A DNA stretch of 64,000 nt, from NCBI RefSeq assembly GCF_051903065.1, contig NZ_CP178438.1. One strand, written 5' to 3'. This stretch comes from Escherichia coli. GTDB taxonomy: Bacteria > Pseudomonadota > Gammaproteobacteria > Enterobacterales > Enterobacteriaceae. The notes under the pieces are model-generated. The model saw only the letters and a program-made list of their open reading frames with translations, was not told the DNA's origin and did not search any database. Made by a program: the position numbers and the translations under genes. Of the stretch, positions 24,700 through 49,383 are shown in pieces; position 1 is the stretch's first letter, and each line of letters starts with the position of its first letter.

Positions 24700-25467
24700 A
24701 TGCTGCAAATCTCTCATCTTTACGCCGATTATGGCGGCAAACCGGCACTGGAAGATATCAACCTGACGCTGGAAAGCGGCGAGCTACTGGTGGTGCTGGG
24801 GCCGTCCGGCTGCGGTAAAACCACCCTGCTGAATCTGATTGCCGGTTTTGTGCCTTATCAGCATGGCAGCATTCAACTGGCGGGTAAGCGTATTGAGGGA
24901 CCGGGAGCAGAGCGTGGCGTAGTTTTTCAGAATGAAGGGCTACTACCGTGGCGCAATGTGCAGGACAACGTGGCGTTCGGCCTGCAATTGGCAGGTATAG
25001 AGAAAATGCAGCGACTGGAAATCGCGCACCAGATGCTGAAAAAAGTGGGGCTGGAAGGCGCAGAAAAACGCTACATCTGGCAGCTTTCCGGTGGTCAACG
25101 TCAGCGGGTGGGCATTGCCCGCGCGCTGGCGGCGAATCCCCAGCTGTTATTACTCGACGAACCGTTTGGTGCGCTGGACGCCTTCACCCGCGACCAGATG
25201 CAAACCCTGCTGCTGAAACTCTGGCAGGAGACGGGCAAGCAGGTGCTGTTGATTACCCACGATATAGAAGAAGCGGTGTTTATGGCGACTGAACTGGTTC
25301 TGCTTTCATCCGGCCCTGGACGTGTGCTGGAGCGGCTGCCGCTCAACTTTGCTCGCCGCTTTGTTGCGGGAGAGTCGAGCCGCAGCATCAAGTCCGATCC
25401 ACAATTCATCGCCATGCGCGAATATGTTTTAAGCCGCGTATTTGAGCAACGGGAGGCGTTCTCATGA
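24700..25467 (+). CDS. tauB: taurine ABC transporter ATP-binding protein
   Basis: 255-aa ORF with Walker [10 protein letters not shown] and signature [15 protein letters not shown]. Confidence 0.93.
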
Positions 25468-26291
25468 GTGTGCTCATTAATGAAAAACTGCATTCGCGGC
25501 GGCTGAAATGGCGCTGGCCGCTCTCGCGTCAGGTGACCTTAAGCATTGGCACGTTAGCGGTTTTACTCACTGTATGGTGGACGGTGGCGGCGCTGCAACT
25601 GATTAGCCCGCTGTTTTTGCCGCCGCCGCAACAAGTACTGGCAAAACTGCTCACCATTGCCGGACCGCAGGGATTTATGGACGCCACGCTGTGGCAGCAT
25701 CTGGCAGCCAGCCTGACGCGCATTTTGCTGGCGCTACTCGCGGCGGTGTTGATCGGCATTCCGGTCGGGATCGCCATGGGGCTAAGCCCGACGGTGCGCG
25801 GCATTCTGGATCCGATAATCGAGCTTTATCGTCCGGTGCCGCCGCTGGCTTATTTGCCGCTGATGGTGATCTGGTTTGGTATTGGCGAAACCTCGAAGAT
25901 CTTACTGATCTATTTAGCGATTTTTGCGCCGGTGGCGATGTCGGCGCTGGCAGGGGTGAAAAGCGCGCAGCAGGTTCGCATTCGTGCCGCCCAGTCGCTG
26001 GGTGCCAGCCGTGCGCAGGTGCTGTGGTTTGTCATTTTGCCCGGCGCGCTGCCGGAAATCCTCACCGGATTACGTATTGGTCTGGGTGTGGGCTGGTCTA
26101 CGCTGGTGGCGGCGGAGCTGATTGCCGCGACGCGCGGTTTAGGATTTATGGTTCAGTCAGCGGGTGAATTTCTCGCGACTGACGTGGTGCTGGCGGGGAT
26201 CGCGGTGATTGCGATTATCGCCTTTCTTTTAGAACTGGGTTTGCGCGCGTTACAGCGCCGCCTGACGCCCTGGCATGGAGAAGTACAATGA
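25464..26291 (+). CDS. tauC: taurine ABC transporter permease
   Basis: 275-aa hydrophobic ORF; 4-bp overlap with tauB. Confidence 0.93.
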
Positions 26292-27139
26292 GTGAACGTC
26301 TGAGCATTACCCCGCTGGGGCCGTATATCGGAGCACAAATTTCGGGTGCCGACCTGACGCGCCCGTTAAGCGATAATCAGTTTGAACAACTTTACCATGC
26401 GGTACTGCGCCATCAGGTGGTGTTTCTGCGCGATCAAGCCATTACGCCGCAGCAGCAACGCGCGCTGGCCCAGCGTTTTGGCGAACTGCATATTCACCCT
26501 GTTTACCCTCATGCCGAAGGGGTTGACGAGATCATCGTGCTGGATACCCATAACGATAATCCGCCAGATAACGACAACTGGCATACCGATGTGACATTTA
26601 TTGAAACGCCACCCGCAGGGGCGATTCTGGCAGCGAAAGAGTTACCTTCGACCGGCGGCGATACGCTCTGGACCAGCGGTATTGCGGCCTATGAGGCGCT
26701 CTCTGTTCCCTTCCGCCAGCTGCTGAGCGGGCTGCGTGCGGAGCATGATTTTCGTAAATCGTTCCCGGAATACAAATACCGCAAAACCGAGGAGGAACAT
26801 CAACGCTGGCGCGAGGCGGTCGCGAAAAATCCGCCGTTGCTACATCCGGTGGTGCGAACGCATCCGGTGAGCGGTAAACAGGCGCTGTTTGTGAATGAAG
26901 GCTTTACTACGCGAATTGTTGATGTGAGCGAGAAAGAGAGCGAAGCCTTGTTAAGTTTTTTGTTTGCCCATATCACCAAACCGGAGTTTCAGGTGCGCTG
27001 GCGCTGGCAACCAAATGATATTGCGATTTGGGATAACCGCGTGACCCAGCACTATGCCAATGCCGATTACCTGCCACAGCGACGGATAATGCATCGGGCG
27101 ACGATTCTTGGGGATAAACCGTTTTATCGGGCGGGGTAA
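26288..27139 (+). CDS. tauD: taurine dioxygenase (alpha-ketoglutarate dependent)
   Basis: 283-aa ORF ([38 protein letters not shown]...); 4-bp overlap with tauC. Confidence 0.95.
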
Positions 27140-27149
27140 TACGAGAGTG

Positions 27150-27240
27150 GACGGTCCCCTCGCCCCCTTGGGGAGAGGGTTAGGGTGAGGGGGCGTTCAC
27201 CGTGCTTTCAACAGGTTAACTCCCCCTTTCTGAGAGGAAA
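27150..27240. other. G/C-rich structured intergenic element between convergent tauD and hemB (probable bidirectional terminator)
   Basis: cccctcgccccc...ggggagagggttagggtgaggggg is capable of stable hairpins; recalled as resembling a recurrent E. coli intergenic motif, unverified. Confidence 0.35.
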
Positions 27241-27245
27241 CAAAA

Positions 27246-28220
27246 TTAACGCAGAATCTTCTTCTCAGCCAAATCCAGCGCAAAGTAGCTGAAAATCAGA
27301 TCCGCACCCGCACGCTTAATCGAACCTAAGCTTTCGAGCACCACTTTCTCTTCATCTATAGCACCCGCCAGCGCGGCGAACTTAATCATCGCATACTCAC
27401 CGCTCACCTGATACGCGCCAATCGGCAATTCAGTACGTTCACGCAGCTCACGCACGATGTCGAGGTACGCTCCAGCAGGTTTAACCATCAGGCAGTCTGC
27501 GCCCTGGGCTTCATCCAGCAGTGATTCACGAATCGCCTCGCGACGGTTCATTGGGTTCATCTGATAGCTTTTGCGGTCGCCTTTTAATGCGCTTCCGGCA
27601 GCTTCACGGAACGGACCATAAAAGGAAGAGGCGAACTTGGTCGAATACGACATAATCGCCGTATCTTTAAAGCCCGCAGCGTCCAGCGCCTGACGAATCG
27701 CCTGTACCTGGCCATCCATCGCGGCGGAAGGGGCGATGAAGTCTGCACCTGCAGCAGCTGCAACCACGGCTTGCTTGCCTAAATTTTCCAGAGTCGCGTC
27801 GTTGTCGACGCCATGCTCGCACAGCACACCGCAGTGACCGTGAGAAGTGTATTCACAGAAGCAGGTGTCTGACATGACAATCATTTCTGGCACGGTCTGC
27901 TTGCAGATGCGCGACATACGCGCCACCAGTCCATCTTCCCGCCAGGCATCGCTGCCGGTTTCATCGGTATGGTGAGAGATGCCGAAAGTCATCACGGAAC
28001 GAATACCGGCGTTGGCGATGCGTTCAATTTCGCGTGCCAGATGTTTCTCTGGAATGCGCATCACGCCAGGCATGGCTTCAACGGCTTTGTAGTCGTCAAT
28101 TTCTTCTTCAACAAAGATCGGCAACACCAGGTCGTTAAGGCTAAGTGTTGTCTCTTCAAACATAGCGCGCAGCGCAGGAGATTTGCGCAGGCGACGAGGG
28201 CGTTGGATTAAGTCTGTCAT
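27246..28220 (-). CDS. hemB: porphobilinogen synthase (delta-aminolevulinic acid dehydratase)
   Basis: 324-aa product from the ATG at 28220 ([37 protein letters not shown]...). Confidence 0.95.
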
Positions 28221-28745
28221 GGTCTGCCTGATGTTTGTGGAATTAAGGTGCACAGTATACCTGAAGCGGGGCAGGAGTGTTTTACGAAAGTTGTCACGAT
28301 GTTGACAAGAAGAGAATGAAAGAGAGACCAGGGCATCTTTGTAATAGAAATAGCAATAACTTCATATTCACTGAAAATATTTTTTAATTTTTATTTATAG
28401 GTGCTGGTTATTATTTTTGCCAATTTGGTTGAACTGTCAAAAATTGAATTACTTAAAGTTCATTGCTTATTGATACATTATTTGTCTGATTTGTTGTTTT
28501 GGTATTTTTAGGATCTATAATTCAAAATTAATGATTTCATTAACGTGTTGAAATGCAGTGTTTTTGTCAACTTATTCTTTGTGCGTATAGATATTTTTAT
28601 ATATGTCCGCAATCGGACTTAGGGGAAAGAATAATTGAACCATTCCTCTATAACGCCGCATAATCGTCAACGCGAAACATAAGATGTTTTCTATGCATTG
28701 ATAATTGATGGATCAACTTATTACGTCCCTGAGGAGGGATGACAA

Positions 28746-31688
<2,943 letters not shown>

Positions 31689-31710
31689 TATTCTTCACTC
31701 CGAAGAAATA

Positions 31711-32399
<689 letters not shown>

Positions 32400-33557
32400 T
32401 CAGGATGCGGGGATAACCAACGGTTTATTCCCGCTTAGCTCGGTCACCAGATCATTGATGCCATCGCTCATATTTTTAAAGCGCGTCAACGGCGAACGAG
32501 TGACCACCACAAACGCGCCAATATTCTTCTGCGGGATCATCGCCATATAGGTAATGAAACCGCCACCACCACCTGTCTTCTGAATAATCCCCGGACGACC
32601 CTCTTTCGGGGCCATATATACCCAGCCTAAACCAAGCGCATCCGCTTTGCCGGGGACATCCATGCCAATCACTTTCGTAAACTGCGCGCGCTGATAAATC
32701 AACGTCTGCATGCGATCTGCCTGGTTACTGCGCTGATAAAAATCAGATGACAAATACTGCTGCATCCAGCGCATCATATCGCCAGGCGTGGAATAGACGC
32801 CGCCGCTGCCAATTGCCGCCAGCGTGTTATTGCACGGACTGGCACCGCGCTCTGCAACCATTAAACGGCGGCACTGATCCGGTGAGGGGGTGTAGGTGGT
32901 GTCTTTCATCCCCAATGGACGGGTAATCTGCTCTTCAAACAACTGGGTATAAGGCTTGCCGGACGCATTCGCCAGTGCATCTGCCAGCAGGTCGAACGCA
33001 AGGTTAGAGTACGCCGCCTGACTGCCTGGCGCGGCTTTCAGCTTCGCCGTAGAAAGGTATTTCCAGCGTTGCTCGCGCGTTGGCCAGACAAACACCGGAC
33101 GATGTGCCGCGCCACCGGGCTGTTCACGGGGCAGGGCGCTGGTATGGGTTGCCAGATTGACCAGCGTAATGGGCGTCCCATTGTAGGTTGGCACGCATGC
33201 GCCTGGCGGAGCATATTTACTTAGCGGATCGTTTAACTTCACGGTCCCCTGGTCGAGCAATTTCACCAGCATCTCACTGGTCATTAGCTTGGTGAGGGAA
33301 GCAATACGCACGACCGAATCCAGCTGCGGGCGAACGTTATTACCAGGTCGCGTTTCGCCATAACTGCGAAAGACGCGCTGGTTACCGTCGATAACAACCA
33401 GCGCCATCCCCGTGGCACCGCTGCCGTAAAAAATATGATCGGCATAACGATCAACAATATCAGAAGCGAACTCCGGTTCAGTGATCGGCTGTGCCGCATG
33501 GACGGAGGTCAATGACGCCGCACACAGCACGGCAGAAAAAAGCAGACTACGTTTCAA
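32400..33557 (-). CDS. ampH: D-alanyl-D-alanine carboxypeptidase/endopeptidase AmpH (class C beta-lactamase-like penicillin-binding protein)
   Basis: 385-aa ORF with signal peptide and the SxxK motif (ASLTK); apparent TTG start. Confidence 0.92.
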   Translation of the reverse strand: MKRSLLFSAVLCAASLTSVHAAQPITEPEFASDIVDRYADHIFYGSGATGMALVVIDGNQRVFRSYGETRPGNNVRPQLDSVVRIASLTKLMTSEMLVKLLDQGTVKLNDPLSKYAPPGACVPTYNGTPITLVNLATHTSALPREQPGGAAHRPVFVWPTREQRWKYLSTAKLKAAPGSQAAYSNLAFDLLADALANASGKPYTQLFEEQITRPLGMKDTTYTPSPDQCRRLMVAERGASPCNNTLAAIGSGGVYSTPGDMMRWMQQYLSSDFYQRSNQADRMQTLIYQRAQFTKVIGMDVPGKADALGLGWVYMAPKEGRPGIIQKTGGGGGFITYMAMIPQKNIGAFVVVTRSPLTRFKNMSDGINDLVTELSGNKPLVIPAS

Positions 33558-33908
33558 CGGTGGTGTCCATAAATTGAATGAAGGTAACTGAGCGTATTTA
33601 TACTACTCATTGATGGATTGCAAAGGGCGAATTAGTGCAATAATAGTGTTAAAAACGTAACGGCGCGTAAACACGATCTTTTTCCTGCTCACCAATGCCT
33701 GCATTTGTGATCCTGCGCGTGTTAATCCGCTTATGTAAACAATCTTTGGTTTGTGAAATCCGTCGAAACAATTCTTATGGTCAGGCTGGCGAACTAAGCG
33801 CCTTGCTATGGGTCACAATGGGCGGTTTCATTTGGCTGACGCTTTGTAGCGGTCATGCGGTTAATACACAGCAGTTGTTAAAACGATAAGAAGTTAGCAG
33901 GAGTGCAT

Positions 33909-35129
33909 ATGTTTAAGTCTTTTTTCCCAAAGCCGGGAACGTTTTTTCTCTCGGCCTTTGTTTGGGCATTGATTGCCGTTATCTTCTGGCAAGCCGGTGG
34001 GGGTGACTGGGTGGCGCGTATCACCGGCGCTTCCGGGCAGATCCCGATTAGCGCCGCGCGTTTCTGGTCGTTGGATTTCCTGATTTTTTACGCTTACTAC
34101 ATTGTTTGCGTAGGACTTTTTGCATTGTTCTGGTTTATCTACAGCCCGCATCGTTGGCAATACTGGTCAATACTCGGTACTGCGCTGATTATCTTCGTCA
34201 CCTGGTTTTTGGTGGAAGTCGGGGTTGCCGTCAACGCCTGGTATGCGCCGTTCTATGATCTGATTCAAACCGCGCTAAGTTCGCCGCATAAAGTCACCAT
34301 CGAACAATTTTACCGCGAAGTGGGCGTCTTTCTGGGGATTGCGCTGATCGCGGTAGTGATCAGTGTGCTGAATAACTTCTTTGTCAGTCACTACGTGTTC
34401 CGCTGGCGTACGGCGATGAACGAATATTACATGGCGAACTGGCAACAACTGCGTCATATCGAAGGCGCCGCACAGCGTGTGCAGGAAGACACCATGCGTT
34501 TTGCTTCAACGCTGGAGAATATGGGTGTCAGTTTTATCAACGCCATCATGACGTTGATCGCCTTCCTGCCGGTGCTGGTAACGCTCTCCGCGCATGTGCC
34601 GGAGCTGCCGATTATCGGGCACATTCCGTATGGTCTGGTGATTGCCGCTATCGTCTGGTCGCTGATGGGGACCGGATTGCTGGCAGTGGTAGGGATCAAA
34701 CTGCCGGGGCTGGAGTTTAAAAACCAGCGAGTAGAGGCTGCCTACCGTAAAGAGCTGGTTTATGGTGAAGACGATGCCACGCGCGCGACGCCGCCTACGG
34801 TACGCGAGCTGTTTAGCGCCGTACGGAAAAACTATTTCCGCCTCTATTTTCACTATATGTATTTCAACATCGCTCGCATTCTCTATTTGCAGGTCGATAA
34901 CGTTTTCGGTTTGTTCTTGCTGTTTCCGTCAATTGTTGCCGGTACGATTACGCTCGGCCTGATGACGCAGATTACCAACGTTTTTGGTCAGGTTCGCGGT
35001 GCTTTCCAGTACCTGATTAACTCATGGACCACACTGGTTGAGTTGATGTCTATCTACAAACGTCTGCGCAGCTTTGAACATGAGCTGGATGGTGACAAAA
35101 TTCAGGAAGTAACCCATACCTTGAGCTAA
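33909..35129 (+). CDS. sbmA: peptide antibiotic/antimicrobial peptide transporter SbmA
   Basis: 406-aa product from the ATG at 33909 ([28 protein letters not shown]...). Confidence 0.95.
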
Positions 35130-35141
35130 AAAGGAGAAGTA

Positions 35142-36236
35142 ATGTCGCGCGTCAATCATCTATCTTCGCTGTCATTGTTGGCGGTTCTGGTTTTAGCGGG
35201 GTGCAGTAGTCAGGCTCCGCAACCGTTGAAAAAGGGCGAAAAAGAGATAGATGTGGCGAGCGTCGTGCGGCAGAAGATGCCTGCGAACGTGAAAGACCGT
35301 GATGCCTGGGCAAAAGATCTCGCCACCACCTTTGAAAGTCAGGGGCTGGCACCGACGCTGGAAAACGTCTGCTCGGTGCTGGCGGTGGCGCAGCAGGAGT
35401 CAAATTATCAGGCAGATCCGGCCGTTCCGGGCTTAAGCAAAATCGCCTGGCAAGAGATTGACCGTCGTGCTGAACGGATGCACATTCCTCCTTTTCTGGT
35501 TCATACCGCGCTAAAAATCAAATCGCCAAACGGCAAAAGTTATAGCGAACGGTTAGATTCGGTGCGTACAGAAAAGCAATTGAGCGCGATTTTTGACGAT
35601 CTGATCAGCATGGTGCCAATGGGGCAGACGCTGTTTGGTTCGCTTAATCCGGTGCGCACCGGTGGGCCGATGCAGGTCAGCATTGCTTTTGCCGAACAGC
35701 ATACCAAAGGGTATCCGTGGAAAATGGACGGTACAGTCCGTCAGGAAGTCTTTAGTCGCCGCGGCGGGTTGTGGTTTGGTACTTACCATTTACTGAATTA
35801 TCCCGCCAGTTATAGCGCACCGATATACCGTTTTGCTGATTTTAACGCTGGCTGGTACGCCAGCCGTAATGCCGCGTTTCAGAACGCGGTCAGTAAGGCC
35901 AGCGGCGTGAAGCTGGCACTGGACGGTGATTTAATTCGTTACGACAGTAAAGAACCCGGGAAAACCGAACTGGCAACGCGCAAACTGGCGGCAAAACTGG
36001 GGATGAGCGACAGCGAAATTCGTCGTCAGCTAGAGAAAGGTGACAGCTTCTCTTTTGAGGAGACGGCGCTGTACAAGAAAGTTTATCAACTTGCCGAAGC
36101 GAAAACGGGTAAATCACTCCCCCGCGAAATGTTGCCTGGCATTCAACTGGAAAGCCCGAAAATCACCCGCAACCTGACTACGGCCTGGTTTGCGAAGCGC
36201 GTAGACGAACGGCGGGCGCGTTGTATGAAACAGTGA
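35142..36236 (+). CDS. yaiW: lipoprotein YaiW
   Basis: 364-aa ORF with a lipobox (LAVLVLAGCSSQ) immediately downstream of sbmA. Confidence 0.92.
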   Translation: MSRVNHLSSLSLLAVLVLAGCSSQAPQPLKKGEKEIDVASVVRQKMPANVKDRDAWAKDLATTFESQGLAPTLENVCSVLAVAQQESNYQADPAVPGLSKIAWQEIDRRAERMHIPPFLVHTALKIKSPNGKSYSERLDSVRTEKQLSAIFDDLISMVPMGQTLFGSLNPVRTGGPMQVSIAFAEQHTKGYPWKMDGTVRQEVFSRRGGLWFGTYHLLNYPASYSAPIYRFADFNAGWYASRNAAFQNAVSKASGVKLALDGDLIRYDSKEPGKTELATRKLAAKLGMSDSEIRRQLEKGDSFSFEETALYKKVYQLAEAKTGKSLPREMLPGIQLESPKITRNLTTAWFAKRVDERRARCMKQ

Positions 36237-36253
36237 TCAAACAGGAATGTCAT

Positions 36254-36284
36254 GCCAGATAAGGCGTTTTAGGCCGTATCTGGC
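36254..36284. terminator. hairpin between convergent yaiW and yaiY (candidate bidirectional terminator, REP-like)
   Basis: Inverted repeat gccagata...tatctggc. Confidence 0.4.
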
Positions 36285-36294
36285 AACGTAAATC

Positions 36295-36603
36295 TTACTG
36301 GCGGCGATGTCGCCAGTGCAGCCATAGCGCCACCACTGCAAAAATGAGGCAGCCTACTAAAAACGGGATCAGCCCGAAAATGGTGCCGACACCTAAACCA
36401 ATTTCCACCCGTGGGCGACCTGTTTCCTGGACCTGCATTAAACGCTCATAGACGCCGGGCGCATGCACTAACAGGTTCAGCAATTGCGCCCCAGCCCAAA
36501 AGCAAAACAGCACAAACAACGCATAGGCAATGTTGCCAGGCGTTGAAGAGGCATTGCGATATTTTCCGCTAAACAGCGATTTTGACAGGGTGAAATCAGC
36601 CAT
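36295..36603 (-). CDS. yaiY: inner membrane protein YaiY
   Basis: 102-aa hydrophobic ORF ([36 protein letters not shown]...). Confidence 0.9.
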
Positions 36604-36862
36604 AAAAACCTCCGGAAGTCATCTGCTTCTCTTCTGGTGTGATACCAGCGGCTTATGGCAAGTCTGACAGGTCATTTAGATTGTCAATATCAGAATCATG
36701 GTAAATTGATGTTGGGAATATTCCCGAAGCGTGAATCTTCGCTGCGAGTCACAAAATAGCAACTTTAAGTTAAATTTATTAACAATTGCGAAAATGTTGT
36801 CTACACCACAGACGGTTGTTGCAGAATATGCAAGGATGTTGTTTTTCGTTAACGGAGCAGCC

Positions 36863-37075
36863 ATGAATCTGCCTGTAAAAATCCGCCGTGACTGGCACTA
36901 CTATGCGTTCGCCATTGGTCTTATATTCATTCTTAATGGCGTGGTGGGGTTACTGGGATTTGAAGCAAAAGGTTGGCAGACCTATGCCGTCGGTCTGGTG
37001 ACATGGGTGATTAGTTTCTGGCTGGCGGGGTTGATTATTCGTCGTCGCGATGAAGAAACTGAAAACGCCCAATAA
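36863..37075 (+). CDS. yaiZ: small membrane protein YaiZ
   Basis: 70-aa product from the ATG at 36863 (MNLPVKIRRDWHYYAFAIGLIFILNGVVG...); the ORF track extends upstream to 36731. Confidence 0.85.
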   Translation: MNLPVKIRRDWHYYAFAIGLIFILNGVVGLLGFEAKGWQTYAVGLVTWVISFWLAGLIIRRRDEETENAQ

Positions 37076-37098
37076 GAATATTATCGGGCGTTAAAATA

Positions 37099-38193
37099 TT
37101 ACATTGTGGTTTTCAATGCGTTATCCGCAGCGTGACGCTCCAGCGCCAGCTCAATCAAACGTGTGATCAGATCGGTGTAACCCAGACCGCTGGCTTGCCA
37201 CAGCTTCGGATACATACTGATGTTGGTGAAGCCAGGCAGTGTGTTGATCTCGTTGATCACCACTTCGTTCTCTGGGGTTAAAAACACGTCTACACGTGCC
37301 ATGCCTGCGCATCCCAACGTCTGATAAGCTTGAACGGCAATCGCCCGGATCTTATCGTTGATTTCTGGCGCAATGGCTGCCGGAACTACCACTTTCGCGC
37401 CATCTTCGTCAATGTACTTGGTGTCGTAGGCATAGAAATCGCTGGTGAGTACGATCTCACCACAGGTGCTGGCTTGCGGATTGTCGTTGCCCAGAACTGC
37501 GCATTCGATCTCACGACCTTTGATCCCTTGCTCAACGATCACTTTATGATCGAACTCGAACGCCAGATCGACGGCAATTGCGTACTGTTCTTCACTGGTT
37601 ACTTTGCTGACACCAACAGAAGAGCCCTGATTAGCCGGTTTTACAAACAGTGGTAACCCCAGTTTAGACTCCACTTCGGCAAAACTAATGTTGTGACGAT
37701 TAGCGCGCGTCAGGGTAATAAATGGCGCAATGTTCAGCCCGGCATCGCGTAGCAGACGTTTGGTGACATCTTTGTCCATACAGGCTGCTGAAGCCAGAAC
37801 ATCAGAACCTACAAACGGTAAATTGGCGACCCGCAGCATTCCCTGCAAGGAACCATCTTCGCCCAGCGTACCGTGGACAATCGGGAAAATGACATCCACC
37901 GTCGGCAACGGCTGACCGTTTTGCGCGTCGATAAGCTGATGCTCATGTTTACCTGGCACCTGGGCGAGGCTGGTCGCCGAAGGGCGCAACGCAATATGGG
38001 CAGGATCGTCTGCATTTAGCAGATAATTGCTGGCATCGCTGACGTGCCATTGCCCTTGTTTATCAATGCCCAGCAGCACAACGTCGAAGCGACTTTTATC
38101 AATGGCATCGACAATGTTTTTTGCCGATTGCAGAGACACTTCATGTTCCGCTGATTTACCACCAAAAACGATTCCTACCCGCAGTTTTTCCAT
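37099..38193 (-). CDS. ddlA: D-alanine--D-alanine ligase A
   Basis: 364-aa ORF ([51 protein letters not shown]...). Confidence 0.95.
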
Positions 38194-38655
38194 CTTAAAA
38201 ACCTATCCCGTCTAACACAAAGTGCATACATTACCACGACAAAACGGGGGATTCGCGGCCTTCTGAAAGATTGTTGCAATCTTCTGCTGACAAAGCGTGC
38301 AACGTACTGGTGAAGAAAGTGCGTTATCTCAAAGATGTGCGCAAGATCACAAAAATGATGAACGGGAAGCTAATTTATTCCTGGCTTAAATGGCCATGCG
38401 GTGAGTTTTTTTCTCTTAATTATAAGTTAACGAAGAGAATATATTTCATAACTTTTATTTATAATAAAGGTTGATAATTAAAAGCCTATATTTTGTGTGG
38501 ATAATTATTTAAATAAGAGAAACGTTTCGCTGGTAATCAAACAAAAAATATTTGCGCAAAGTATTTCCTTTGTCATAAAAATAATACTTCCAGACACTAT
38601 GAAGTTGTGAAACATAATGTTAACTTCTCCATACTTTGGATAAGGAAATACAGAC

Positions 38656-38916
38656 ATGAAAAATCTCATTGCTGAGTTGTTATTTAAGCTTGCCCAAAAA
38701 GAAGAAGAGTCGAAAGAACTGTGTGCGCAGGTAGAAGCTTTGGAGATTATCGTCACTGCAATGCTTCGCAATATGGCGCAAAATGACCAACAACGGTTGA
38801 TTGATCAGGTAGAGGGGGCGCTGTACGAGGTAAAGCCCGATGCCAGCATTCCTGACGACGATACGGAGCTGCTGCGCGATTACGTAAAGAAGTTATTGAA
38901 GCATCCTCGTCAGTAA
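38656..38916 (+). CDS. iraP: anti-adapter protein IraP (stabilises RpoS)
   Basis: 86-aa ORF ([40 protein letters not shown]...). Confidence 0.93.
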
Positions 38917-38936
38917 AAAGTTAATCTTTTCAACAG

Positions 38937-38954
38937 CTGTCATAAAGTTGTCAC
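38937..38954 (+). promoter_or_regulatory. Pho box of the phoA promoter (PhoB binding site), with -10 TATAGT at 38965..38970
   Basis: ctgtcataaagttgtcac: two CTGTCAT-like 7-bp direct repeats with 4-bp spacing, upstream of the phoA start. Confidence 0.85.
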
Positions 38955-39016
38955 GGCCGAGACTTATAGTCGCTTTGTTTTTATTTTTTAATGTATTTGT
39001 ACATGGAGAAAATAAA

Positions 39017-40432
39017 GTGAAACAAAGCACTATTGCACTGGCACTCTTACCGTTACTGTTTACCCCTGTGACAAAAGCCCGGACACCAGAAATGCCTGTT
39101 CTGGAAAACCGGGCTGCTCAGGGCGATATTACTGCACCCGGCGGTGCTCGCCGCTTAACGGCTGATCAGACCGCCGCTCTGCGTGATTCTCTTAGCGATA
39201 AACCTGCAAAAAATATTATTTTGCTGATTGGTGATGGGATGGGGGACTCGGAAATTACTGCCGCACGCAATTATGCCGAAGGTGCGGGCGGCTTTTTTAA
39301 AGGTATCGATGCCTTACCGCTTACCGGGCAATACACTCACTATGCGCTGAATAAAAAAACCGGCAAACCGGACTACGTCACCGACTCGGCTGCATCAGCA
39401 ACCGCCTGGTCAACCGGTGTCAAAACCTATAACGGCGCGCTGGGCGTCGATATTCACGAAAAAGATCACCCAACGATTCTGGAAATGGCAAAAGCCGCAG
39501 GTCTGGCGACCGGTAACGTTTCTACCGCAGAGTTGCAGGATGCCACGCCCGCTGCGCTGGTGGCGCATGTGACCTCGCGCAAATGCTACGGTCCGGGCGC
39601 GACCAGTGAAAAATGTCCGGGTAACGCTCTGGAAAAAGGCGGAAAAGGATCGATTACCGAACAGTTACTTAACGCTCGTGCCGACGTTACGCTTGGCGGT
39701 GGCGCAAAAACCTTTGCTGAAACGGCAACCGCAGGTGAATGGCAGGGAAAAACGCTGCGTGAACAGGCACAGGCGCGTGGTTATCAGTTGGTGAGCGATG
39801 CTGCCTCACTGAATTCGGTGACGGAAGCGAATCAGCAAAAACCCCTGCTTGGCCTGTTTGCTGACGGCAATATGCCAGTGCGCTGGCTAGGACCGAAAGC
39901 AACGTATCACGGTAATATTGATAAGCCCGCAGTCACCTGTACGCCTAATCCGCAACGTAATGACAGTGTACCGACCCTGGCACAGATGACCGACAAAGCC
40001 ATTGAATTGTTGAGTAAAAATGAGAAAGGCTTTTTCCTGCAAGTTGAAGGTGCGTCAATCGATAAACAGGATCATGCTGCGAATCCTTGTGGGCAAATTG
40101 GCGAGACGGTCGATCTCGATGAAGCCGTACAACGGGCGCTGGAATTCGCCAAAAAGGATGGTAACACGTTGGTCATAGTCACCGCTGATCACGCCCACGC
40201 CAGCCAGATTGTTGCGCCGGATACCAAAGCTCCGGGCCTCACCCAGGCGCTAAATACCAAAGATGGCGCAGTGATGGTGATGAGTTACGGGAACTCCGAA
40301 GAGGATTCACAAGAACATACCGGCAGTCAGTTGCGTATTGCGGCGTATGGCCCGCATGCCGCCAATGTCGTTGGACTGACCGACCAGACCGATCTCTTCT
40401 ACACCATGAAAGCCGCTCTGGGGCTGAAATAA
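39017..40432 (+). CDS. phoA: alkaline phosphatase
   Basis: GTG start at 39017 ([21 protein letters not shown] signal peptide); 471-aa precursor; active-site DSAAS present. Confidence 0.95.
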
Positions 40433-40437
40433 AACCG

Positions 40438-40476
40438 CTCCCGGCAGTGAATTTTCGCTGCCGGGTGGTTTTTTTG
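40438..40476 (+). terminator. rho-independent terminator after phoA
   Basis: Hairpin cccggcag...ctgccggg followed by a T run (tggttttttt). Confidence 0.85.
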
Positions 40477-40550
40477 CTGTTAGCAACCAGACTTAATGGC
40501 AGATCACGGGCGCATACGCTCATGGTTAAAACATGAAGAGGGATGGTGCT

Positions 40551-40871
40551 ATGAAAATAACATTACTGGTTACCTTGCTTTTCGGTCTGGTTTTTTTAAC
40601 CACCGTCGGCGCTGCCGAGAGAACTTTAACCCCACAACAACAGCGTATGACCTCCTGTAATCAGCAGGCGACGGCGCAGGCGTTGAAAGGGGATGCTCGT
40701 AAGACCTACATGAGTGATTGCCTGAAGAACAGCAAGTCTGCGCCTGGCGAAAAAAGTTTGACGCCACAGCAGCAAAAGATGCGCGAATGTAATAATCAAG
40801 CAACGCAACAATCTCTGAAAGGTGATGATCGTAATAAGTTTATGAGTGCCTGCCTCAAGAAAGCCGCCTGA
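40551..40871 (+). CDS. psiF: phosphate starvation-inducible protein PsiF
   Basis: 106-aa product from the ATG at 40551 (MKITLLVTLLFGLVFL...) with an internally duplicated LTPQQQ...CN.QAT...LKGD motif. Confidence 0.92.
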   Translation: MKITLLVTLLFGLVFLTTVGAAERTLTPQQQRMTSCNQQATAQALKGDARKTYMSDCLKNSKSAPGEKSLTPQQQKMRECNNQATQQSLKGDDRNKFMSACLKKAA

Positions 40872-40972
40872 CACCTGATAGTGCTAACGGGTGAGCTACG
40901 AAAATGGCTCACCCGAAATTTCATACTTCTGCCTTTAGCTCCGTCTCTATAATTTGGGAAAATTGTTTCTGA

Positions 40973-42088
40973 ATGTTCCCAAAAATAATGAATGATGAAA
41001 ACTTTTTCAAAAAAGCGGCGGCGCACGGGGAGGAACCTCCTTTAACTCCTCAAAACGAACATCAGCGGTCCGGGCTGCGCTTCGCCCGTCGCGTCAGACT
41101 ACCCCGTGCGGTTGGCCTGGCTGGCATGTTCTTACCGATTGCTTCAACGCTGGTTTCACACCCGCCGCCGGGCTGGTGGTGGCTGGTGTTGGTCGGCTGG
41201 GCGTTCGTCTGGCCGCATTTAGCCTGGCAGATAGCGAGCAGGGCCGTCGATCCGCTTAGCCGGGAAATTTACAACTTAAAAACCGATGCAGTATTAGCGG
41301 GAATGTGGGTAGGCGTAATGGGCGTAAACGTGCTGCCTTCCACCGCGATGTTGATGATTATGTGTCTGAATTTGATGGGGGCAGGCGGCCCCCGTCTGTT
41401 TGTCGCGGGTCTGGTGTTGATGGTGGTTTCCTGCCTTGTCACCCTCGAGCTGACGGGCATTACCGTGTCGTTCAATAGTGCGCCGCTGGAATGGTGGCTC
41501 TCCCTTCCCATTATTGTCATTTATCCTCTGCTGTTTGGCTGGGTCAGCTACCAGACGGCAACCAAACTGGCGGAACATAAACGCAGGTTGCAGGTCATGA
41601 GTACACGCGACGGCATGACGGGCGTGTATAACCGACGTCATTGGGAAACTATGTTACGCAATGAATTTGATAACTGTCGGCGACATAATCGCGATGCAAC
41701 GTTACTGATTATCGATATCGACCATTTCAAGAGCATCAACGATACCTGGGGCCATGATGTGGGCGATGAAGCGATTGTGGCGCTTACCCGACAGTTACAA
41801 ATTACCCTGCGTGGTAGCGATGTGATTGGTCGGTTTGGCGGCGATGAGTTTGCAGTAATCATGTCCGGTACGCCAGCTGAGAGCGCCATTACCGCCATGT
41901 TACGAGTGCATGAAGGATTAAATACGTTACGCCTGCCGAATACGCCGCAGGTGATGTTACGGATTAGTGTGGGGGTTGCGCCGCTGAACCCACAAATGAG
42001 TCACTATCGTGAGTGGTTGAAATCGGCAGATTTGGCGCTCTACAAAGCAAAGAAAGCCGGACGTAACCGCACCGAAGTGGCGGCCTGA
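40973..42088 (+). CDS. dgcC: diguanylate cyclase DgcC (AdrA/YaiC)
   Basis: 371-aa ORF with an N-terminal membrane (MASE2-like) region and a GGDEF domain (RFGGDEFAV). Confidence 0.93.
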   Translation: MFPKIMNDENFFKKAAAHGEEPPLTPQNEHQRSGLRFARRVRLPRAVGLAGMFLPIASTLVSHPPPGWWWLVLVGWAFVWPHLAWQIASRAVDPLSREIYNLKTDAVLAGMWVGVMGVNVLPSTAMLMIMCLNLMGAGGPRLFVAGLVLMVVSCLVTLELTGITVSFNSAPLEWWLSLPIIVIYPLLFGWVSYQTATKLAEHKRRLQVMSTRDGMTGVYNRRHWETMLRNEFDNCRRHNRDATLLIIDIDHFKSINDTWGHDVGDEAIVALTRQLQITLRGSDVIGRFGGDEFAVIMSGTPAESAITAMLRVHEGLNTLRLPNTPQVMLRISVGVAPLNPQMSHYREWLKSADLALYKAKKAGRNRTEVAA

Positions 42089-42104
42089 CGTCCGGCGAAA
42101 GTCA

Positions 42105-42914
42105 TCAGGATTTGCTGAGTTTTTCTGATTTTTCCATACACTTCGTCATCGCTTCGATCACTGCAGCACGGAAGCCTTTCTCTTCCAGTACGCGTACCGC
42201 TTCAATGGTGGTGCCTCCCGGTGAGCAGACCATATCTTTCAGTGCCCCTGGATGTTCTCCCGTTTCCAGCACCATTTTTGCGGAACCCATTACCGCCTGA
42301 GCGGCAAATTTATACGCCTGGGCGCGTGGCATCCCGCCCAGCACGGCGGCGTCGGCCATCGCTTCGATAAACATAAATACGTAGGCTGGCGAAGAACCGC
42401 TCACACCGACCACCGGGTGGATCATCGGCTCAGCAATTACTTCCGCTTCGCCAAAGCAGCGGAAAATATTCAGCACATCAGCGGTATCTTCTGGGGTTAC
42501 CAGCGCGTTTGGCGTTACGGAGGTCATCCCGGCATTAACCAGCGCGGGAGTGTTCGGCATGGCGCGGATAATTTTCCGGTCATGGCCCAGCGCGCGGGCA
42601 AGCTGGTCGAGCGTGACACCTGCAGCAATAGAAACGACCAGAGAGTCTTTATTGAGGCTGGAGGTGATTTCGCTAAGCACTTTAATCATGATGCCAGGTT
42701 TAACGGCGGCAAAAATGATGTCGGCGATTTGCGCCACTTCTTGCGCCGATTCTGCGGCGTTGATGCCGAACTGGTCATGCAGGGCGGCGACTTTATCCGG
42801 GGAGGGGGTGTATACCCAGATTTGCCCTGGAAGCACCTGACCGCTGGCAATCAGACCGCCGAGAATGGCTTTTCCCATATTGCCGCAGCCAATAAAACCG
42901 ATTTTCTTTTCCAT
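42105..42914 (-). CDS. proC: pyrroline-5-carboxylate reductase
   Basis: 269-aa product from the ATG at 42914 ([21 protein letters not shown]...); the ORF track extends to 43022. Confidence 0.95.
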
Positions 42915-43033
42915 TGCCTCACTCCTGCCGTGAAATTCATTGTTTTGATAATCGCTGGCAGAAGCATAAACAGAACTATGCCGGAAGGCAAAAGCGCGAC
43001 ACAATAGAGGATTACCCAACAAAGGATGACTTT

Positions 43034-43492
43034 ATGACAATTTGGGTGGATGCCGACGCGTGTCCCAATGTAATTAAAGAGATTTTGTATCGCGCGGCGG
43101 AACGTATGCAGATGCCGCTGGTACTGGTAGCAAACCAGAGTTTACGCGTGCCGCCATCGCGATTTATTCGTACGCTGCGCGTCGCGGCAGGTTTCGACGT
43201 TGCCGATAACGAAATTGTCCGGCAGTGTGAAGCGGGCGATTTGGTGATCACCGCAGATATACCTTTGGCTGCTGAAGCCATCGAGAAAGGCGCTGCGGCG
43301 CTTAATCCGCGCGGTGAACGTTACACGCCAGCGACCATTCGTGAGCGCCTGACGATGCGCGATTTTATGGATACCTTACGTGCCAGTGGGATCCAGACCG
43401 GCGGACCAGATAGCCTTTCACAACGTGACCGCCAGGCATTTGCCGCGGAGCTGGAGAAGTGGTGGCTGGAAGTGCAACGTAGTCGTGGCTAA
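43034..43492 (+). CDS. yaiI: UPF0178 protein YaiI
   Basis: 152-aa product from the ATG at 43034 ([24 protein letters not shown]...); divergent from proC. Confidence 0.9.
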
Positions 43493-43493
43493 A

Positions 43494-43617
43494 TGTAATT
43501 TATTATTTACACTTCATTCTTGAATATTTATTGGTATAGTAAGGGATGTATTGAGATTTTCACTTTAAGTGGAATTTTTTCTTTACAATCGAAATTGTAC
43601 TAGTTTGATGGTATGAT
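43494..43617 (+). promoter_or_regulatory. aroL promoter region: TyrR boxes (43494..43511, 43570..43587), TrpR half-site (43598..43606), -10 TATGAT (43612..43617)
   Basis: tgtaatttattatttaca and tggaattttttctttaca fit TGTAAA-N6-TTTACA; gtactagtt fits the TrpR operator half-site. Confidence 0.7.
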
Positions 43618-43674
43618 CGCTATTCTCATGACACCGGCTTTCGCCGCATTGCGACCTATTGGGGAAAACCCACG

Positions 43675-44199
43675 ATGACACAACCTCTTTTTCTGATTGG
43701 GCCTCGGGGCTGTGGTAAAACAACGGTCGGAATGGCCCTTGCCGATTCGCTTAACCGTCGGTTTGTCGATACCGATCAGTGGTTGCAATCACAGCTCAAT
43801 ATGACGGTCGCGGAGATCGTCGAAAGGGAAGAGTGGGCGGGATTTCGCGCCAGAGAAACGGCGGCGCTGGAAGCGGTAACTGCGCCATCCACCGTTATCG
43901 CTACAGGCGGCGGCATTATTCTGACGGAATTTAATCGTCACTTCATGCAAAATAACGGGATCGTGGTTTATTTGTGTGCGCCAGTATCAGTCCTGGTTAA
44001 CCGACTGCAAGCTGCACCGGAAGAAGATTTACGGCCAACCTTAACGGGAAAACCGCTGAGCGAAGAAGTTCAGGAAGTGCTGGAAGAACGCGATGCGCTA
44101 TATCGTGAAGTTGCGCATATTATCATCGACGCAACAAACGAACCCAGCCAGGTGATTTCTGAAATTCGCAGCGCCCTGGCACAGACGATCAATTGTTGA
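43675..44199 (+). CDS. aroL: shikimate kinase II
   Basis: 174-aa ORF with P-loop GPRGCGKTT. Confidence 0.95.
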
Positions 44200-44239
44200 T
44201 TTTCGAGCGCCTATACTTAACGTTCATCCCGTGAAATAA

Positions 44240-44440
<201 letters not shown>

Positions 44441-44697
44441 CCGCATCAGACTGCTCGGAAGGGATTCTGAGTGCCACTACAAGGGATCTGCGTCACATTT
44501 TTCATAATTCATGTTTTTCAAATAATTAGAATATTAAACAATAACAATCCATTACTGGAATCATTTGGAATCTTTACATTATGCCGTGCACGTCTGCTGC
44601 TACGCTTTTTGTCATTTGTAGCACAAGTAAGTGTCAGCAGTGGTGCTTAACACTTGCCCGGTAATTAACGACGAAATAAAAGTAAGGTGGAAGAACA

Positions 44698-45375
44698 ATG
44701 AGTGCGTCGTTGGCGATTCTAACCATCGGCATTGTACCTATGCAGGAAGTTTTGCCGCTCCTGACAGAATACATTGACGAAGATAATATTTCCCATCATA
44801 GCCTGCTGGGGAAGTTAAGCCGCGAAGAAGTGATGGCGGAGTACGCGCCAGAAGCAGGCGAAGACACAATTCTCACATTATTAAATGACAACCATTTGGT
44901 CCATGTTTCGCGTCGCAAAGTAGAGCGTGACCTGCAAGGTGTGGTTGAAGTGCTCGATAATCAGGGCTACGACGTCATTATATTAATGAGTACGGCAAAC
45001 ATTAGTAGTATGACTGCGCGTAATACGATCTTTCTTGAGCCGTCGCGGATATTGCCACCGCTGGTTTCCTCTATTGTTGAAGATCATCAGGTGGGGGTTA
45101 TCGTACCGGTTGAGGAGTTGCTGACCGTTCAGGCGCAAAAATGGCAAATTTTGCAGAAACCGCCGGTATTTTCATTGGGTAACCCCATTCATGATTCAGA
45201 ACAAAAAATCATTGATGCCGGGAAAGAATTACTGGCGAAAGGCGCAGATGTCATCATGCTGGATTGTTTGGGATTTAACCAGCGTCATCGCGATTTACTG
45301 CAAAAACAGCTCGATGTTCCTGTCTTGCTCTCTAACGTATTGATTGCACGGCTGGCTGCGGAATTACTGGTGTAA
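44698..45375 (+). CDS. aroM: AroM family protein
   Basis: 225-aa ORF ([30 protein letters not shown]...). Confidence 0.92.
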
Positions 45376-45446
45376 TTTTGCGTGACAGCCAGCGCATCTG
45401 GCCCCTATAGTGAAGTAGATGTTCAACTACCAGACAGGGCCAGTTT

Positions 45447-45731
45447 ATGCTTCAAAGTAATGAGTACTTTTCCGGCAAAGTGAAATCGATCGGCTTTTCC
45501 AGCAGCAGCACTGGTCGCGCCAGCGTGGGTGTTATGGTTGAAGGCGAATACACCTTCAGCACCGCTGAGCCGGAAGAGATGACGGTAATCAGTGGCGCGC
45601 TGAATGTGTTACTGCCTGACGCGACCGACTGGCAAGTGTATGAAGCCGGTTCGGTGTTTAATGTTCCCGGTCACAGTGAGTTTCATCTGCAAGTTGCCGA
45701 ACCCACCTCTTATCTGTGCCGCTATCTGTAA
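45447..45731 (+). CDS. ppnP: pyrimidine/purine nucleoside phosphorylase PpnP (YaiE)
   Basis: 94-aa ORF ([37 protein letters not shown]...). Confidence 0.92.
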
Positions 45732-47065
45732 TTCCTCGCCTTCCCCTTGAACGGGAGGGCATTTTTCTGAAATATCCTCTCTTTAACCCATAATAATATT
45801 TCCTTTGCTGCGATTTTTTCAATTTCCGATATATTCATAATTCATCAAGGTTGATATCAATATCATTGAAGATTATGAATAGAATTAATATATTGGTCAT
45901 CTGTATGGTCGTGTTTTTTATGACTGGCAATGCATGTGCCACAGAGTGGATCAGTAGCGAGGACCTTATCACCTCTGACTTTCATCTTATGACGGCAGAT
46001 GAGCGCAACGTGGTTAAAGCGGCAACCGACGATAGTATGGAAGCTGCTTATATGCTAAAAGATAATATCCGCTGGTATTATCATAATGGTAACCTATCAT
46101 TACCCGCTAACTTCAGCAATCAAAATAAACTGGTGGTGAACGGTAATTTAACGATTTCCGGCGATTATGATGATTATCTGTCAGGTAATGGTCATCTGAT
46201 TGTATTAGGTAATGTTATTGTCGATAACTTTATTAATCATGATTTCGCGTATGTCAAAGGACAGATGACAGCGAAAGGTTTAGTTTATGCTGATTACAAT
46301 GATCACAACTTTGAAGTGATGAAGGGAATTAGCGCGCGAGGCATTATTGTTTCCGATAAAGCAACGCAATTTGAGGTCATCAAAGCTGAGTTTTATATCA
46401 ATGAAGATGAAAGCGGTGAAGGATATAACTGGGATGAGAATATTCAAAAAGCCTATTCACTGGTGACTGCCGATCTTTATGATCACACTGAAATCGAAAC
46501 CGATAACATTTCCAATGCGTATCCTGACTATGATAGCGTCGCAGACAACATCGTTCAGGGTTTACCTCTTTTTTGCGATAAAGCCGCTCCTGAAATTAAT
46601 GAGAAATTAAAATGGATTGAAACGGGGAAACTCGATAATTTCCCAGCGAATAAAATAAAGCATCAAGATCCACTGGTGGCACGTTTTCTGACTCATACAG
46701 AGAGTTTATCACCCGCCGTTATGCTGCAACTGTTACAGCACCCCGATGACCAGACGCGTGAATCGATGGCGCAGTCCTGGCCCGCTCAACAGATGCATTT
46801 GCTTACCGATGAATTAATTAAAGATGAGGCTGTTGCCAGAGGGCTGGTTAAAAACAGTAATATTTCCGCCGATGTGAATAAAAAATTAATGTCTGTACCC
46901 GTCGAGAGCGTACAGCTGGAGCAGGCCAGACAGGATAATCTTTCTCCAGATATTGTTGCGTCGTTAAGTCATAGCCCCTTTCTCAGTGTACGCAAGACAT
47001 TACTCAGCCAGGTGATGCTGCCAACTTACTGATTTAGTGTATGATGGTGTTTTTGAGGTGCTCCA

Positions 47066-47341
47066 GTGGCTTCTGTTTCTATCAGCTGTCCCTCCTGTTC
47101 AGCTACTGACGGGGTGGTGCGTAACGGCAAAAGCACCGCCGGACATCAGCGCTATCTCTGCTCTCACTGCCGTAAAACATGGCAACTGCAGTTCACTTAC
47201 ACCGCTTCTCAACCCGGTACGCACCAGAAAATCATTGATATGGCCATGAATGGCGTTGGATGCCGGGCAACAGCCCGCATTATGGGCGTTGGCCTCAACA
47301 CGATTTTACGTCACTTAAAAAACTCAGGCCGCAGTCGGTAA
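47066..47341 (+). CDS. insA: IS1 protein InsA
   Basis: 91-aa ORF ([43 protein letters not shown]...) at IS1 positions 56..331. Confidence 0.95.
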
Positions 47342-47763
47342 CCTCGCGCATACAGCCGGGCAGTGACGTCATCGTCTGCGCGGAAATGGACGAACAGTGG
47401 GGCTATGTCGGGGCTAAATCGCGCCAGCGCTGGCTGTTTTACGCGTATGACAGGCTCCGGAAGACGGTTGTTGCGCACGTATTCGGTGAACGCACTATGG
47501 CGACGCTGGGGCGTCTTATGAGCCTGCTGTCACCCTTTGACGTGGTGATATGGATGACGGATGGCTGGCCGCTGTATGAATCCCGCCTGAAGGGAAAGCT
47601 GCACGTAATCAGCAAGCGATATACGCAGCGAATTGAGCGGCATAACCTGAATCTGAGGCAGCACCTGGCACGGCTGGGACGGAAGTCGCTGTCGTTCTCA
47701 AAATCGGTGGAGCTGCATGACAAAGTCATCGGGCATTATCTGAACATAAAACACTATCAATAA
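47260..47763 (+). CDS. insB: IS1 InsB (transposase made as an InsAB' fusion by -1 frameshift at the A6C motif near 47317..47323)
   Basis: 167-aa ORF in the -1 frame relative to insA; the aaaaaac slippery site is present in the overlap. Confidence 0.93.
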
Positions 47764-48927
47764 GTTGGAGTCATTACCACTCAGCCATTACGATTACGCC
47801 TGGCTGGTTCCGACTGCAGTGGCCGATGAGTTGATAAATAACGAAGACCCGGAGTTACGTGAAAGAATTACCGGAGCAGATTTAACCGCACAACAAGCAG
47901 TGATGTTGAGTAAAGATAAATCACTGAAAGTTCGTGAAGCATTAGCCCGGACGCTTACTGAATTAAAAATTACCCAACTGTCAGCAACCCTGCGTACAGA
48001 GGATATTGAACGTATCGCAGAACAAATGTATCTGGATAATAAAGAAAATAAAAATATCGTAAAAGCGTTATTGATAGCGTTGCCGGAGATGCGTCAACTG
48101 TCTCTGGCAAAAGAAGATGTGCACAATTTGCGCGAAGGTGCGCGTTATCTGACATCGAAGGACGTGATTAGTTATCTATTGACTCAGCATGATGTTCCCA
48201 CCGTCTGGGATGAGCTGGCACGCGATAAATTATTGCCGCTGGAATATAAGAAACAGTTATGGCAACGCACATTAAATTTAATGATGAGCAAACGGCAAGA
48301 AGATCAAGAGCAAGCCTACGAAGTACAGCTGGCGCTGATTGATAATGGTGTTGTTGACGAAGAGATGTTAAATAATGCCATTGATTTACTGGTTGATTTA
48401 CCCGCTGAATACCGCTATCGAATGCGTAACCAATTATTTGATAATAAAGATTTACCTTCCGGAATTATCAACAAACTCGATCAACAGTATCGCTTCAACT
48501 CTGACTGGGCGCTGTCTGTTGACAGTATGAAAAATAGCACCCGTAGGCAAAGTGAAAGAGGATTACACCGCTGGAACCGTGAGGATAGCGATATTTTTGC
48601 GGAACTGGCGACGATAAAAGATAAATCAGATGATGAATGGTGGCGTGCATTGCTGCAAAGTCGCAATGATCATTTGCGCCAAACGGCATTACGCAACGCA
48701 CATACCCCGGCGTCGTTGTTAACGACATTGACTGAGCCTCAGGATCGGTCGCTGGCTATTAATAATCCACAGCTGGCTGCCGATGTGAAAACGGCGTGGT
48801 TAAAAGAGGATCCATCATTACTCTTATTTGTCGAACAACCCGATCTTTCGCTGTTACGTGATTTAGTGAAAACCGGGGCAACGCGGAAAATTCGCAGTGA
48901 AGCGCGTCACCGGCTTGAGGAAAAACA

Positions 48928-49383
48928 ATGACACAACGTCCATGGAGCAAGTTACAGCGGGAGATCTATGACTTACTGACGCCAACGATCAACCTGCAAA
49001 TTCACTGTACCCGTTATCCCATGCGCAGCCAAAATGGTGGAAGCACCGATTTACCGCGTTATTGGATCACGTTGGATAAAAACGTGATCTGGGATTACCC
49101 GAAAGACTTTATTGCAGGTAACGGTGGAGTGCGTAATTTTCACGGTGAAACTTGCTGGTATCCTTACCTGACGGATATTTGTTCAATTTCTGATTTATTG
49201 CGTGAATATATTGATACCCCAAAAGCGGAGCTGTTAACAAAACAATTTACCAGCGATAAATGGGGGTTAGTGAATATTCTGCGTGCTGCTGACAGGCGAA
49301 TAGGGATGAGGCGATTAGATCAGTTACGGCGTAAAACGCATAATATTGCTGCGCTAAAAATTATTGCCCGCCGTAGCGAATAA
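48928..49383 (+). CDS. hypothetical 151-aa protein, translationally coupled to the upstream repeat-protein gene
   Basis: ATGA start/stop overlap at 48928..48931; no signal peptide; no family recognised. Confidence 0.6.

Follow-up and report, generated by a model that had tools for sequence, protein, structure and literature searches.

The window, a stretch of 64,000 nucleotides of Escherichia coli DNA, contains a complete insertion sequence of the IS1A type that interrupts a gene for a protein of 759 amino acids and has the same orientation as that gene (Table 1). The gene is located between ppnP and rdgC on the E. coli chromosome and starts at position 45875; the ppnP terminator (45738-45760) and several promoter-like sequences precede it. 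Its product possesses the Pfam domain DUF2773 at the C-terminus, and the N-terminus resembles a signal peptide when judged by eye; Pfam returned no match for the N-terminal half of the protein. The insertion point falls in codons 376-378, and the 5' open reading frame as it now stands runs for seven codons into the left terminal inverted repeat (IRL) of IS1 where it ends at a TGA codon (47030-47032). A gene for a protein of the SF0329 family follows the DUF2773 gene. The ATG of this second gene and the stop codon before it overlap in an ATGA arrangement, and the second gene has its own Shine-Dalgarno motif, GAGG, at 48917-48920. Neither the DUF2773 protein nor the SF0329-family protein matched a defense system in PADLOC, and the latter gave no sequence match in the PDB. 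Most of both genes has been lost from K-12 by two deletions, and the remnants are ykiA and ykiD. The IS1 element is bordered on each side by a copy of the 9-bp sequence ACTCAGCCA, a duplication that was not mentioned in the original prediction for this DNA.

Table 1. Features of the IS1 element and of the interrupted locus, by position in the window.
Feature	Position	Strand	Basis or remark
5' part of DUF2773 gene, 378 codons	45875..47010	+	ORF list
Left 9-bp target-site duplication ACTCAGCCA	47002..47010	.	Perfect direct repeat
Complete IS1, IS1A type	47011..47778	+	768 bp
IRL (left terminal inverted repeat) GGTGATGCTGCCAACTTACTGAT	47011..47033	+	Reference match, 0 mismatches
Promoter-like CTGCCA-16-TATGAT overlapping IRL	47018..47045	+	Consensus scan, 9/12
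insA, GTG start, 91 aa	47066..47341	+	Repressor, also N-terminal part of transposase; ORF list
insB frame, 167 codons as ORF	47260..47763	+	Part of InsAB' after -1 shift; ORF list
A6C (-1) programmed frameshift motif AAAAAAC	47317..47323	+	IS positions 307-313; read from the sequence, identical in all K-12 copies
IRR (right terminal inverted repeat) GGTAATGACTCCAACTTATTGAT	47756..47778	-	Reference match, 0 mismatches
Spurious fragment-ORF start, TTG + 4 IRR codons	47765..47779	+	No Shine-Dalgarno upstream
Candidate outward hybrid promoter TTGGAG (IRR, -35-like)-18-TACGAT (flank)	47765..47794	+	7/12, weak
Right 9-bp target-site duplication ACTCAGCCA	47779..47787	.	Perfect direct repeat
3' part of DUF2773 gene, 381 codons plus stop	47788..48931	+	Pfam DUF2773 at C-terminus
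SF0329-family gene, 151 aa	48928..49383	+	PF25753 81.6 bits; NCBIfam SF0329_fam 94.6 bits

The anatomy of the element is that of a textbook IS1. It was proposed originally that both terminal inverted repeats are intact, that insA and insB are full length, and that the slippery A6C site for the InsAB' frameshift is present, and all three statements hold (Table 1). IRL and the right terminal inverted repeat (IRR) each occur once in the 64 kb, with zero occurrences expected by chance; 18 of their 23 positions are the same in both, which is true of every K-12 copy, and they are identical to the repeats of K-12 IS1A-E. A conceptual -1 shift on A6C yields a predicted InsAB' protein of 232 amino acids that is free of stop codons. 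The Pfam profiles Zn_ribbon_InsA and HTH_Tnp_IS1 were matched over their full length in the InsA region, and InsAB' scored 73.9 bits against PF03811, 98.4 bits against PF12759 and 260.7 bits against PF03400 (DDE_Tnp_IS1), covering positions 1-131 of the 131 in the last of these profiles. The score of InsAB' against the NCBIfam equivalog transpos_IS1 (NF033558) was 245 bits, the cut-off being 100. The element thus displays the hallmarks of the IS1 family: a length of ~768 bp with imperfect terminal repeats of ~23 bp that begin with GGT, overlapping insA and insB' frames with A6C near the end of insA at which frameshifting is predicted, an N-terminal zinc ribbon followed by a helix-turn-helix and an IS1-type DDE domain, and, at the target, a duplication that is 8 or 9 bp long in this family and 9 bp here. 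The weak IS1 promoter PIS1 is known to overlap IRL partly (PMC12428005). The promoter-like site listed in Table 1 sits in this place, and its identity to the corresponding sequence of IS1A and IS1E suggests that it functions likewise. An Rfam scan gave no match in or near the element. A blastn search of the whole window detected no second IS1 copy or fragment, and the possibility that the element is one arm of a composite transposon was rejected on this basis.

The six IS1 copies carried by K-12 MG1655 and the two carried by plasmid R100 were compared with the window copy. The latter differs from IS1A and IS1E at 1 of 768 nucleotides, and neither the repeats nor A6C are altered: IS position 444 is G in the window copy and T in IS1A/E, giving arginine and serine, respectively, at residue 130 of InsAB'. 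Eight nucleotides separate the window copy from IS1B and IS1C, in which InsAB' bears L81F and L217Q, and eight separate it from IS1D in which the changes are L81F and H193Y. The two R100 copies, which are identical to one another, differ from the window copy at six nucleotides with L81F as the only change in InsAB', and IS1F differs at 72 nucleotides and has an InsAB' shortened to 162 amino acids. Residue R130 is therefore common to the window copy, IS1B/C/D and both R100 copies, and is present in every K-12 type other than IS1A/E; the window copy retains L81, H193 and L217 as in IS1A/E. It is without the substitutions of the K-12 types that are almost immobile, except for the shared R130. The L81/R130 form is neither the sequence of K-12 IS1A/E nor that of the R100 element; judged from these alignments, both residues would have a precedent among elements considered active, L81 in IS1A/E and R130 in the R100 IS1.

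A perfect 9-bp duplication such as that in Table 1 is the mark left by simple insertion of IS1, and the uninterrupted site was found in three near-clonal genomes, 23CRST027, 23CRST031 and ECNB21-M121, whose sequences agree with the left flank (24.9 kb) and the right flank (16.2 kb) at 100.0% identity. The sequence ACTCAGCCA is present in a single copy at the empty site of ECNB21-M121, and in 23CRST027 the matches to the left and right flanks overlap by exactly 9 bp (729309-729317). When the junction-spanning 2 kb were searched by megablast, the same insertion was observed in 0 of 5,426 complete E. coli genomes. Moreover, the products of the split gene, calculated with three alternative starts, were absent from an index of 153 billion genes in an exact-product look-up. 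As the insertion is private and the site is empty in near-clonal genomes, the insertion is recent and simple, and came from an active IS1 pool. Removal of IS1 together with one copy of the duplication restores an open frame of 2280 bp that is 1 nucleotide off the gene of ECNB21-M121 (WP_157839818.1). Thus, the host gene has not decayed since the insertion, because the restored frame differs at one base only.

The exact 768-bp sequence is widespread. It was estimated to occur in roughly 500-650 E. coli records among the 9,596 that matched, a figure obtained from an evenly spread listing of 60 of the 9,596 records in which the first four entries were exact. Many genomes contain copies with 100% identity whose annotation reads 'IS1-like element IS1A family transposase'. 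IS1 is a well-known insertion sequence of E. coli, and the element represents a common natural variant. Four exact copies were fetched so that their insertion sites could be inspected. One interrupts aroM of E. coli C and is flanked by the 9-bp duplication GACTGCGCG, and another is in a capsule locus of ESY003, where the duplication measures 8 bp. The other two, of which one is chromosomal and one is on a plasmid, are without duplications, as expected after IS1-mediated rearrangement. Identical copies at independent sites, with duplications of their own, provide indirect natural evidence that this very sequence moves.

The relatives of the strain are rich in IS1. Places that match IS1 numbered 28 in ECNB21-M121 and at least 37 in 23CRST027/031, the median for the species being 11, and these near-clonal genomes differ from one another in the number of such places. 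The first 50-kb sample of 23CRST027 contained no IS1 and the second contained one, with a retron Ec67 gene on one side and betA on the other. This copy is the same variant as that in the window, with 767 of 768 positions identical; all that distinguishes it is the loss of 1 bp from a run of G residues, and it is annotated 'frameshifted'. Either this deletion is genuine and inactivates the copy, or it is a sequencing error in the homopolymer. Unless it is the latter, not all IS1 copies of the lineage are intact.

The structural features on which the original prediction relied are shared by elements that hardly move. More than 99.9% of the IS1 transposition events in strain BW25113 come from IS1A and IS1E (Smith et al., 2025; PMC12428005), to which demonstrated transposition in K-12 is confined, whereas IS1B, C, D and F move at ~1 per 10^10 cells (PMC12428005). 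An excess of InsAB' provided in trans is needed before the latter copies show appreciable movement (Ord et al., 2025; PMC12903888). Near-identical copies of intact appearance can be practically immobile, and genomic context alters the rate (PMC12428005). IS1B/C/D of K-12 share IRL and IRR with the window copy and possess a 91-residue InsA, a 232-residue InsAB' and A6C. Intact repeats, insA and insB frames and A6C therefore are necessary, but not sufficient, since IS1B/C/D have all of these and yet are almost immobile. The window copy also withstands a stricter comparison, as its sequence places it with the mobile type and it has none of the substitutions peculiar to the immobile ones. Taken with its occurrence at independent sites, its private insertion and its IS1-rich relatives, the sequence type upholds the original view that mobility has probably been retained, on stronger grounds than those first advanced. 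The copy most likely is transposition-competent, as it keeps every cis-acting and coding feature of the K-12 copies that transpose, and it would be expected to move at the usual very low rate that is limited by InsA and by frameshifting. For the combination of L81 and R130, competence is suggested by the natural insertions of the exact sequence and by the presence of each residue in an active element.

Transcription from the host gene may contribute to this activity. A terminator that blocked read-through from upstream lowered the transposition of IS1A/E in K-12 (PMC12428005). Read-through from the promoter of the DUF2773 gene likewise may feed transcription of insAB', because the element lies inside the gene and in the same orientation, like IS1E in yrhA.

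Downstream of the element, the open reading frame called from position 47765 had been dismissed in the original prediction, and rightly so: its TTG codon lies inside IRR, the first five codons belong to IS1, and what comes after them is the 3' portion of the disrupted gene. The frame is an annotation artefact that represents half of a pseudogene. It had also been suggested that transcription directed outward from IS1 could in principle express this fragment and the coupled 151-residue frame. The IS1 repeat is reported to contain an outward-facing -35 box, and hybrid promoters to arise only where a -10 box occurs at the right distance (PMC8764528). The effects of IS1 on downstream genes vary, with afaA raised by ~7 log2 units, ugd unchanged and osmB lowered (PMC8764528), and further examples of IS1 hybrid promoters have been compiled (PMC9330008). 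Promoter-like sites were sought with a standard threshold of 9/12 and a permissive threshold of 8/12; the best hybrid candidate, at the right junction, reached 7/12 (Table 1). Between IS1 and position 49383 there was no plus-strand promoter-like site that scored at least 9/12 with a spacer of 16-18 nucleotides. On this reading of the sequence, outward expression of the 3' fragment and the SF0329-family gene appears unsupported.

Several other interpretations of these data were weighed. The view that an IS1 sequence collapsed as a repeat was misplaced in a draft assembly, so that both junctions are false, draws on the absence of the insertion from the other genomes and the gene index that were searched. 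However, removal of IS1 restores an in-frame and otherwise intact host gene, and a perfect 9-bp duplication is placed exactly at the ends of the element; neither is expected of a chimeric join, which makes an assembly artefact barely credible. The copy alternatively might look intact and be practically immobile in the manner of IS1B/C/D, with R130 or the genomic context blocking either synthesis of the transposase or assembly of the transpososome. Those three elements also carry G444, and thus R130, and are almost immobile despite intact repeats, open frames and A6C; moreover, context is capable of shifting the rate of IS1, by about 2- to 3-fold. Nevertheless, R130 is found also in both R100 copies, and in IS1B/C/D the residue is accompanied by L81F with L217Q or by L81F with H193Y, which the window copy does not have. 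The exact sequence furthermore is present at several independent sites with fresh target duplications, and the window copy itself has just inserted where it now resides. Immobility of this kind consequently is unlikely.

The remaining alternatives concern the consequences of the insertion. The element might act as a mobile promoter that maintains or raises expression of the SF0329-family gene, either by pairing the -35 box of IRR with a -10 box in the flank or by read-through from the IS1 promoter. The capacity of the outward -35 box to build hybrid promoters, exemplified by the increase of ~7 log2 units at afaA (PMC8764528), is in line with this proposal, as are the TTGGAG-18-TACGAT sequence that spans the right junction, the Shine-Dalgarno motif of the SF0329-family gene, and transcripts that extend to the stop codon of insB in lacZ operon fusions. 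The hybrid site falls below both scan thresholds, however, and no better plus-strand site follows it before the end of the SF0329-family gene. The reduced transcription of osmB and the unaltered transcription of ugd when IS1 is located 5' of these genes (PMC8764528) also speak against a general activating effect, and the proposal is improbable overall. A more elaborate version is that the L81/R130 element is especially active and drives an ongoing expansion in the lineage, in addition to rewiring the SF0329-family gene via the hybrid promoter formed by IRR and the flank. That combination is quite improbable. IS1 insertions in operons are classically polar, which also argues against a promoter function of the element. 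Reduced expression downstream is the likelier outcome in view of this established polarity, and the SF0329-family gene probably is expressed less as a result of polarity from IS1.

The best overall explanation is a recent insertion of an IS1A-type element that split the host gene and left a copy which most likely is still competent for transposition. The probability of this reading is placed at about 0.85, and the residual doubt of ~15% concerns whether a copy with exactly this L81/R130 sequence reaches a normal transposition rate where it now lies. In this course of events, a single IS1A-type IS1 transposed recently into codons 376-378 of the DUF2773 gene, creating the usual 9-bp target duplication and dividing the gene of 759 codons in two. 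The insB frame, joined to insA by the -1 shift at A6C, would yield the 232-residue InsAB' transposase of the DDE type, with InsA serving as repressor. For the host, the consequences are inactivation of the DUF2773 gene and, probably, diminished expression of the overlapping SF0329-family gene. The insertion marks a very recent transposition of IS1 in an IS1-rich E. coli lineage and is of local importance only, inactivating a gene without an assigned function in a locus that also is deleted from K-12. The methodological point is broader: intact ends, open frames and A6C alone do not show that an IS1 element is active, and the discriminating evidence is comparison with the mobile and immobile K-12 types combined with inspection of empty sites in close relatives.

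The known copies of IS1 resemble the window element to different degrees. IS1F (type IV) belongs to the same family and has the same length and A6C motif, but its terminal repeats are altered and its insB frame is shortened. IS1B and IS1C (type II) and IS1D (type III) are closer: they too are 768 bp long, with the same IRL and IRR, intact insA, insB and A6C, and R130, and are set apart by private substitutions that are absent from the window copy. The R100 element, which we take to be the classical active IS1R, has the same length, ends and R130 and an InsAB' that is the same at all but one residue, with F81 there and L81 here; the differences lie at IS positions 262, 298, 301, 304, 393 and 396. 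The closest counterparts are IS1A and IS1E (type I, the 'consensus' of PMC12428005). These occupy insertion sites unlike that of the window copy, but 767 of the 768 nucleotides are the same, including the repeats, the promoter region, insA, A6C and all that follows up to position 443, and IS1E lies inside yrhA in the orientation of that gene just as the window copy lies in its host gene.

The substitution L81F in the frameshifted transposase InsAB' has been proposed as one cause of the immobility of the K-12 copies IS1B, IS1C and IS1D (PMC12428005). This change also proved to be the sole amino-acid difference between the window IS1 and both copies of the element on plasmid R100. Private alterations in InsAB' are present in the K-12 elements, namely L217Q in IS1B and IS1C and H193Y in IS1D. 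As L81F alone distinguishes the window copy from the R100 copies, L217Q and H193Y look like better candidates from sequence comparison for the cause of immobility.

Features discussed, with locations (IS positions are numbered within the 768-bp IS1)
Feature	Location	Strand	Remarks
InsAB' residues 81, 193, 217	IS positions 298, 631, 704		Compared in K-12 and R100 copies
Sibling IS1, 23CRST027	NZ_AP045789.1 639660..640426	-
Two-gene module (759-aa DUF2773 protein gene, 151-aa SF0329-family gene)	window 45875..49383		Between ppnP and rdgC
naRNA4 / CssrE (Rfam RF02564)	window 10965..11040	-	68.6 bits; gathering score 59.5

The near-clonal strain 23CRST027 possesses a sibling IS1, adjoining betA and a retron Ec67-family reverse transcriptase gene, which differs from the window copy by a single 1-bp deletion in a GGGG run (IS 498-501) and is labeled 'frameshifted' by PGAP. 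Either the base is truly missing, which would inactivate the sibling copy, or its absence is a homopolymer sequencing error. The exact IS1 variant of the window was found in no phage record: the nearest records were SfIV, a P1 isolate and phi456 (99.7% identity), and reference P1 (NC_005856) shared 99.0% identity. In ECNB21-M121, which also is near-clonal, window 22100..47010 matched NZ_CP083585.1 3625793..3651903 in two pieces, and the matching span was ~1.2 kb longer than that of the window. ECNB21-M121 therefore has an additional insertion of ~1.2 kb within the interval, a size that would be compatible with IS5.

RF02564 was the sole Rfam family detected in a scan of the 64 kb.

Neither the DUF2773 protein nor the SF0329-family protein of the ppnP-rdgC module produced sequence matches in PDB or matches in PADLOC. 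The module is interrupted by IS1 in the window. The corresponding region of K-12 (NC_000913.3 408609..409030) has undergone two deletions, with the equivalents of window 45874-48589 and 48960-49321 missing, such that K-12 retains ykiA/ykiD as remnants. Thus, the module has been lost by two independent routes: deletions in K-12 and splitting by IS1 in the window.
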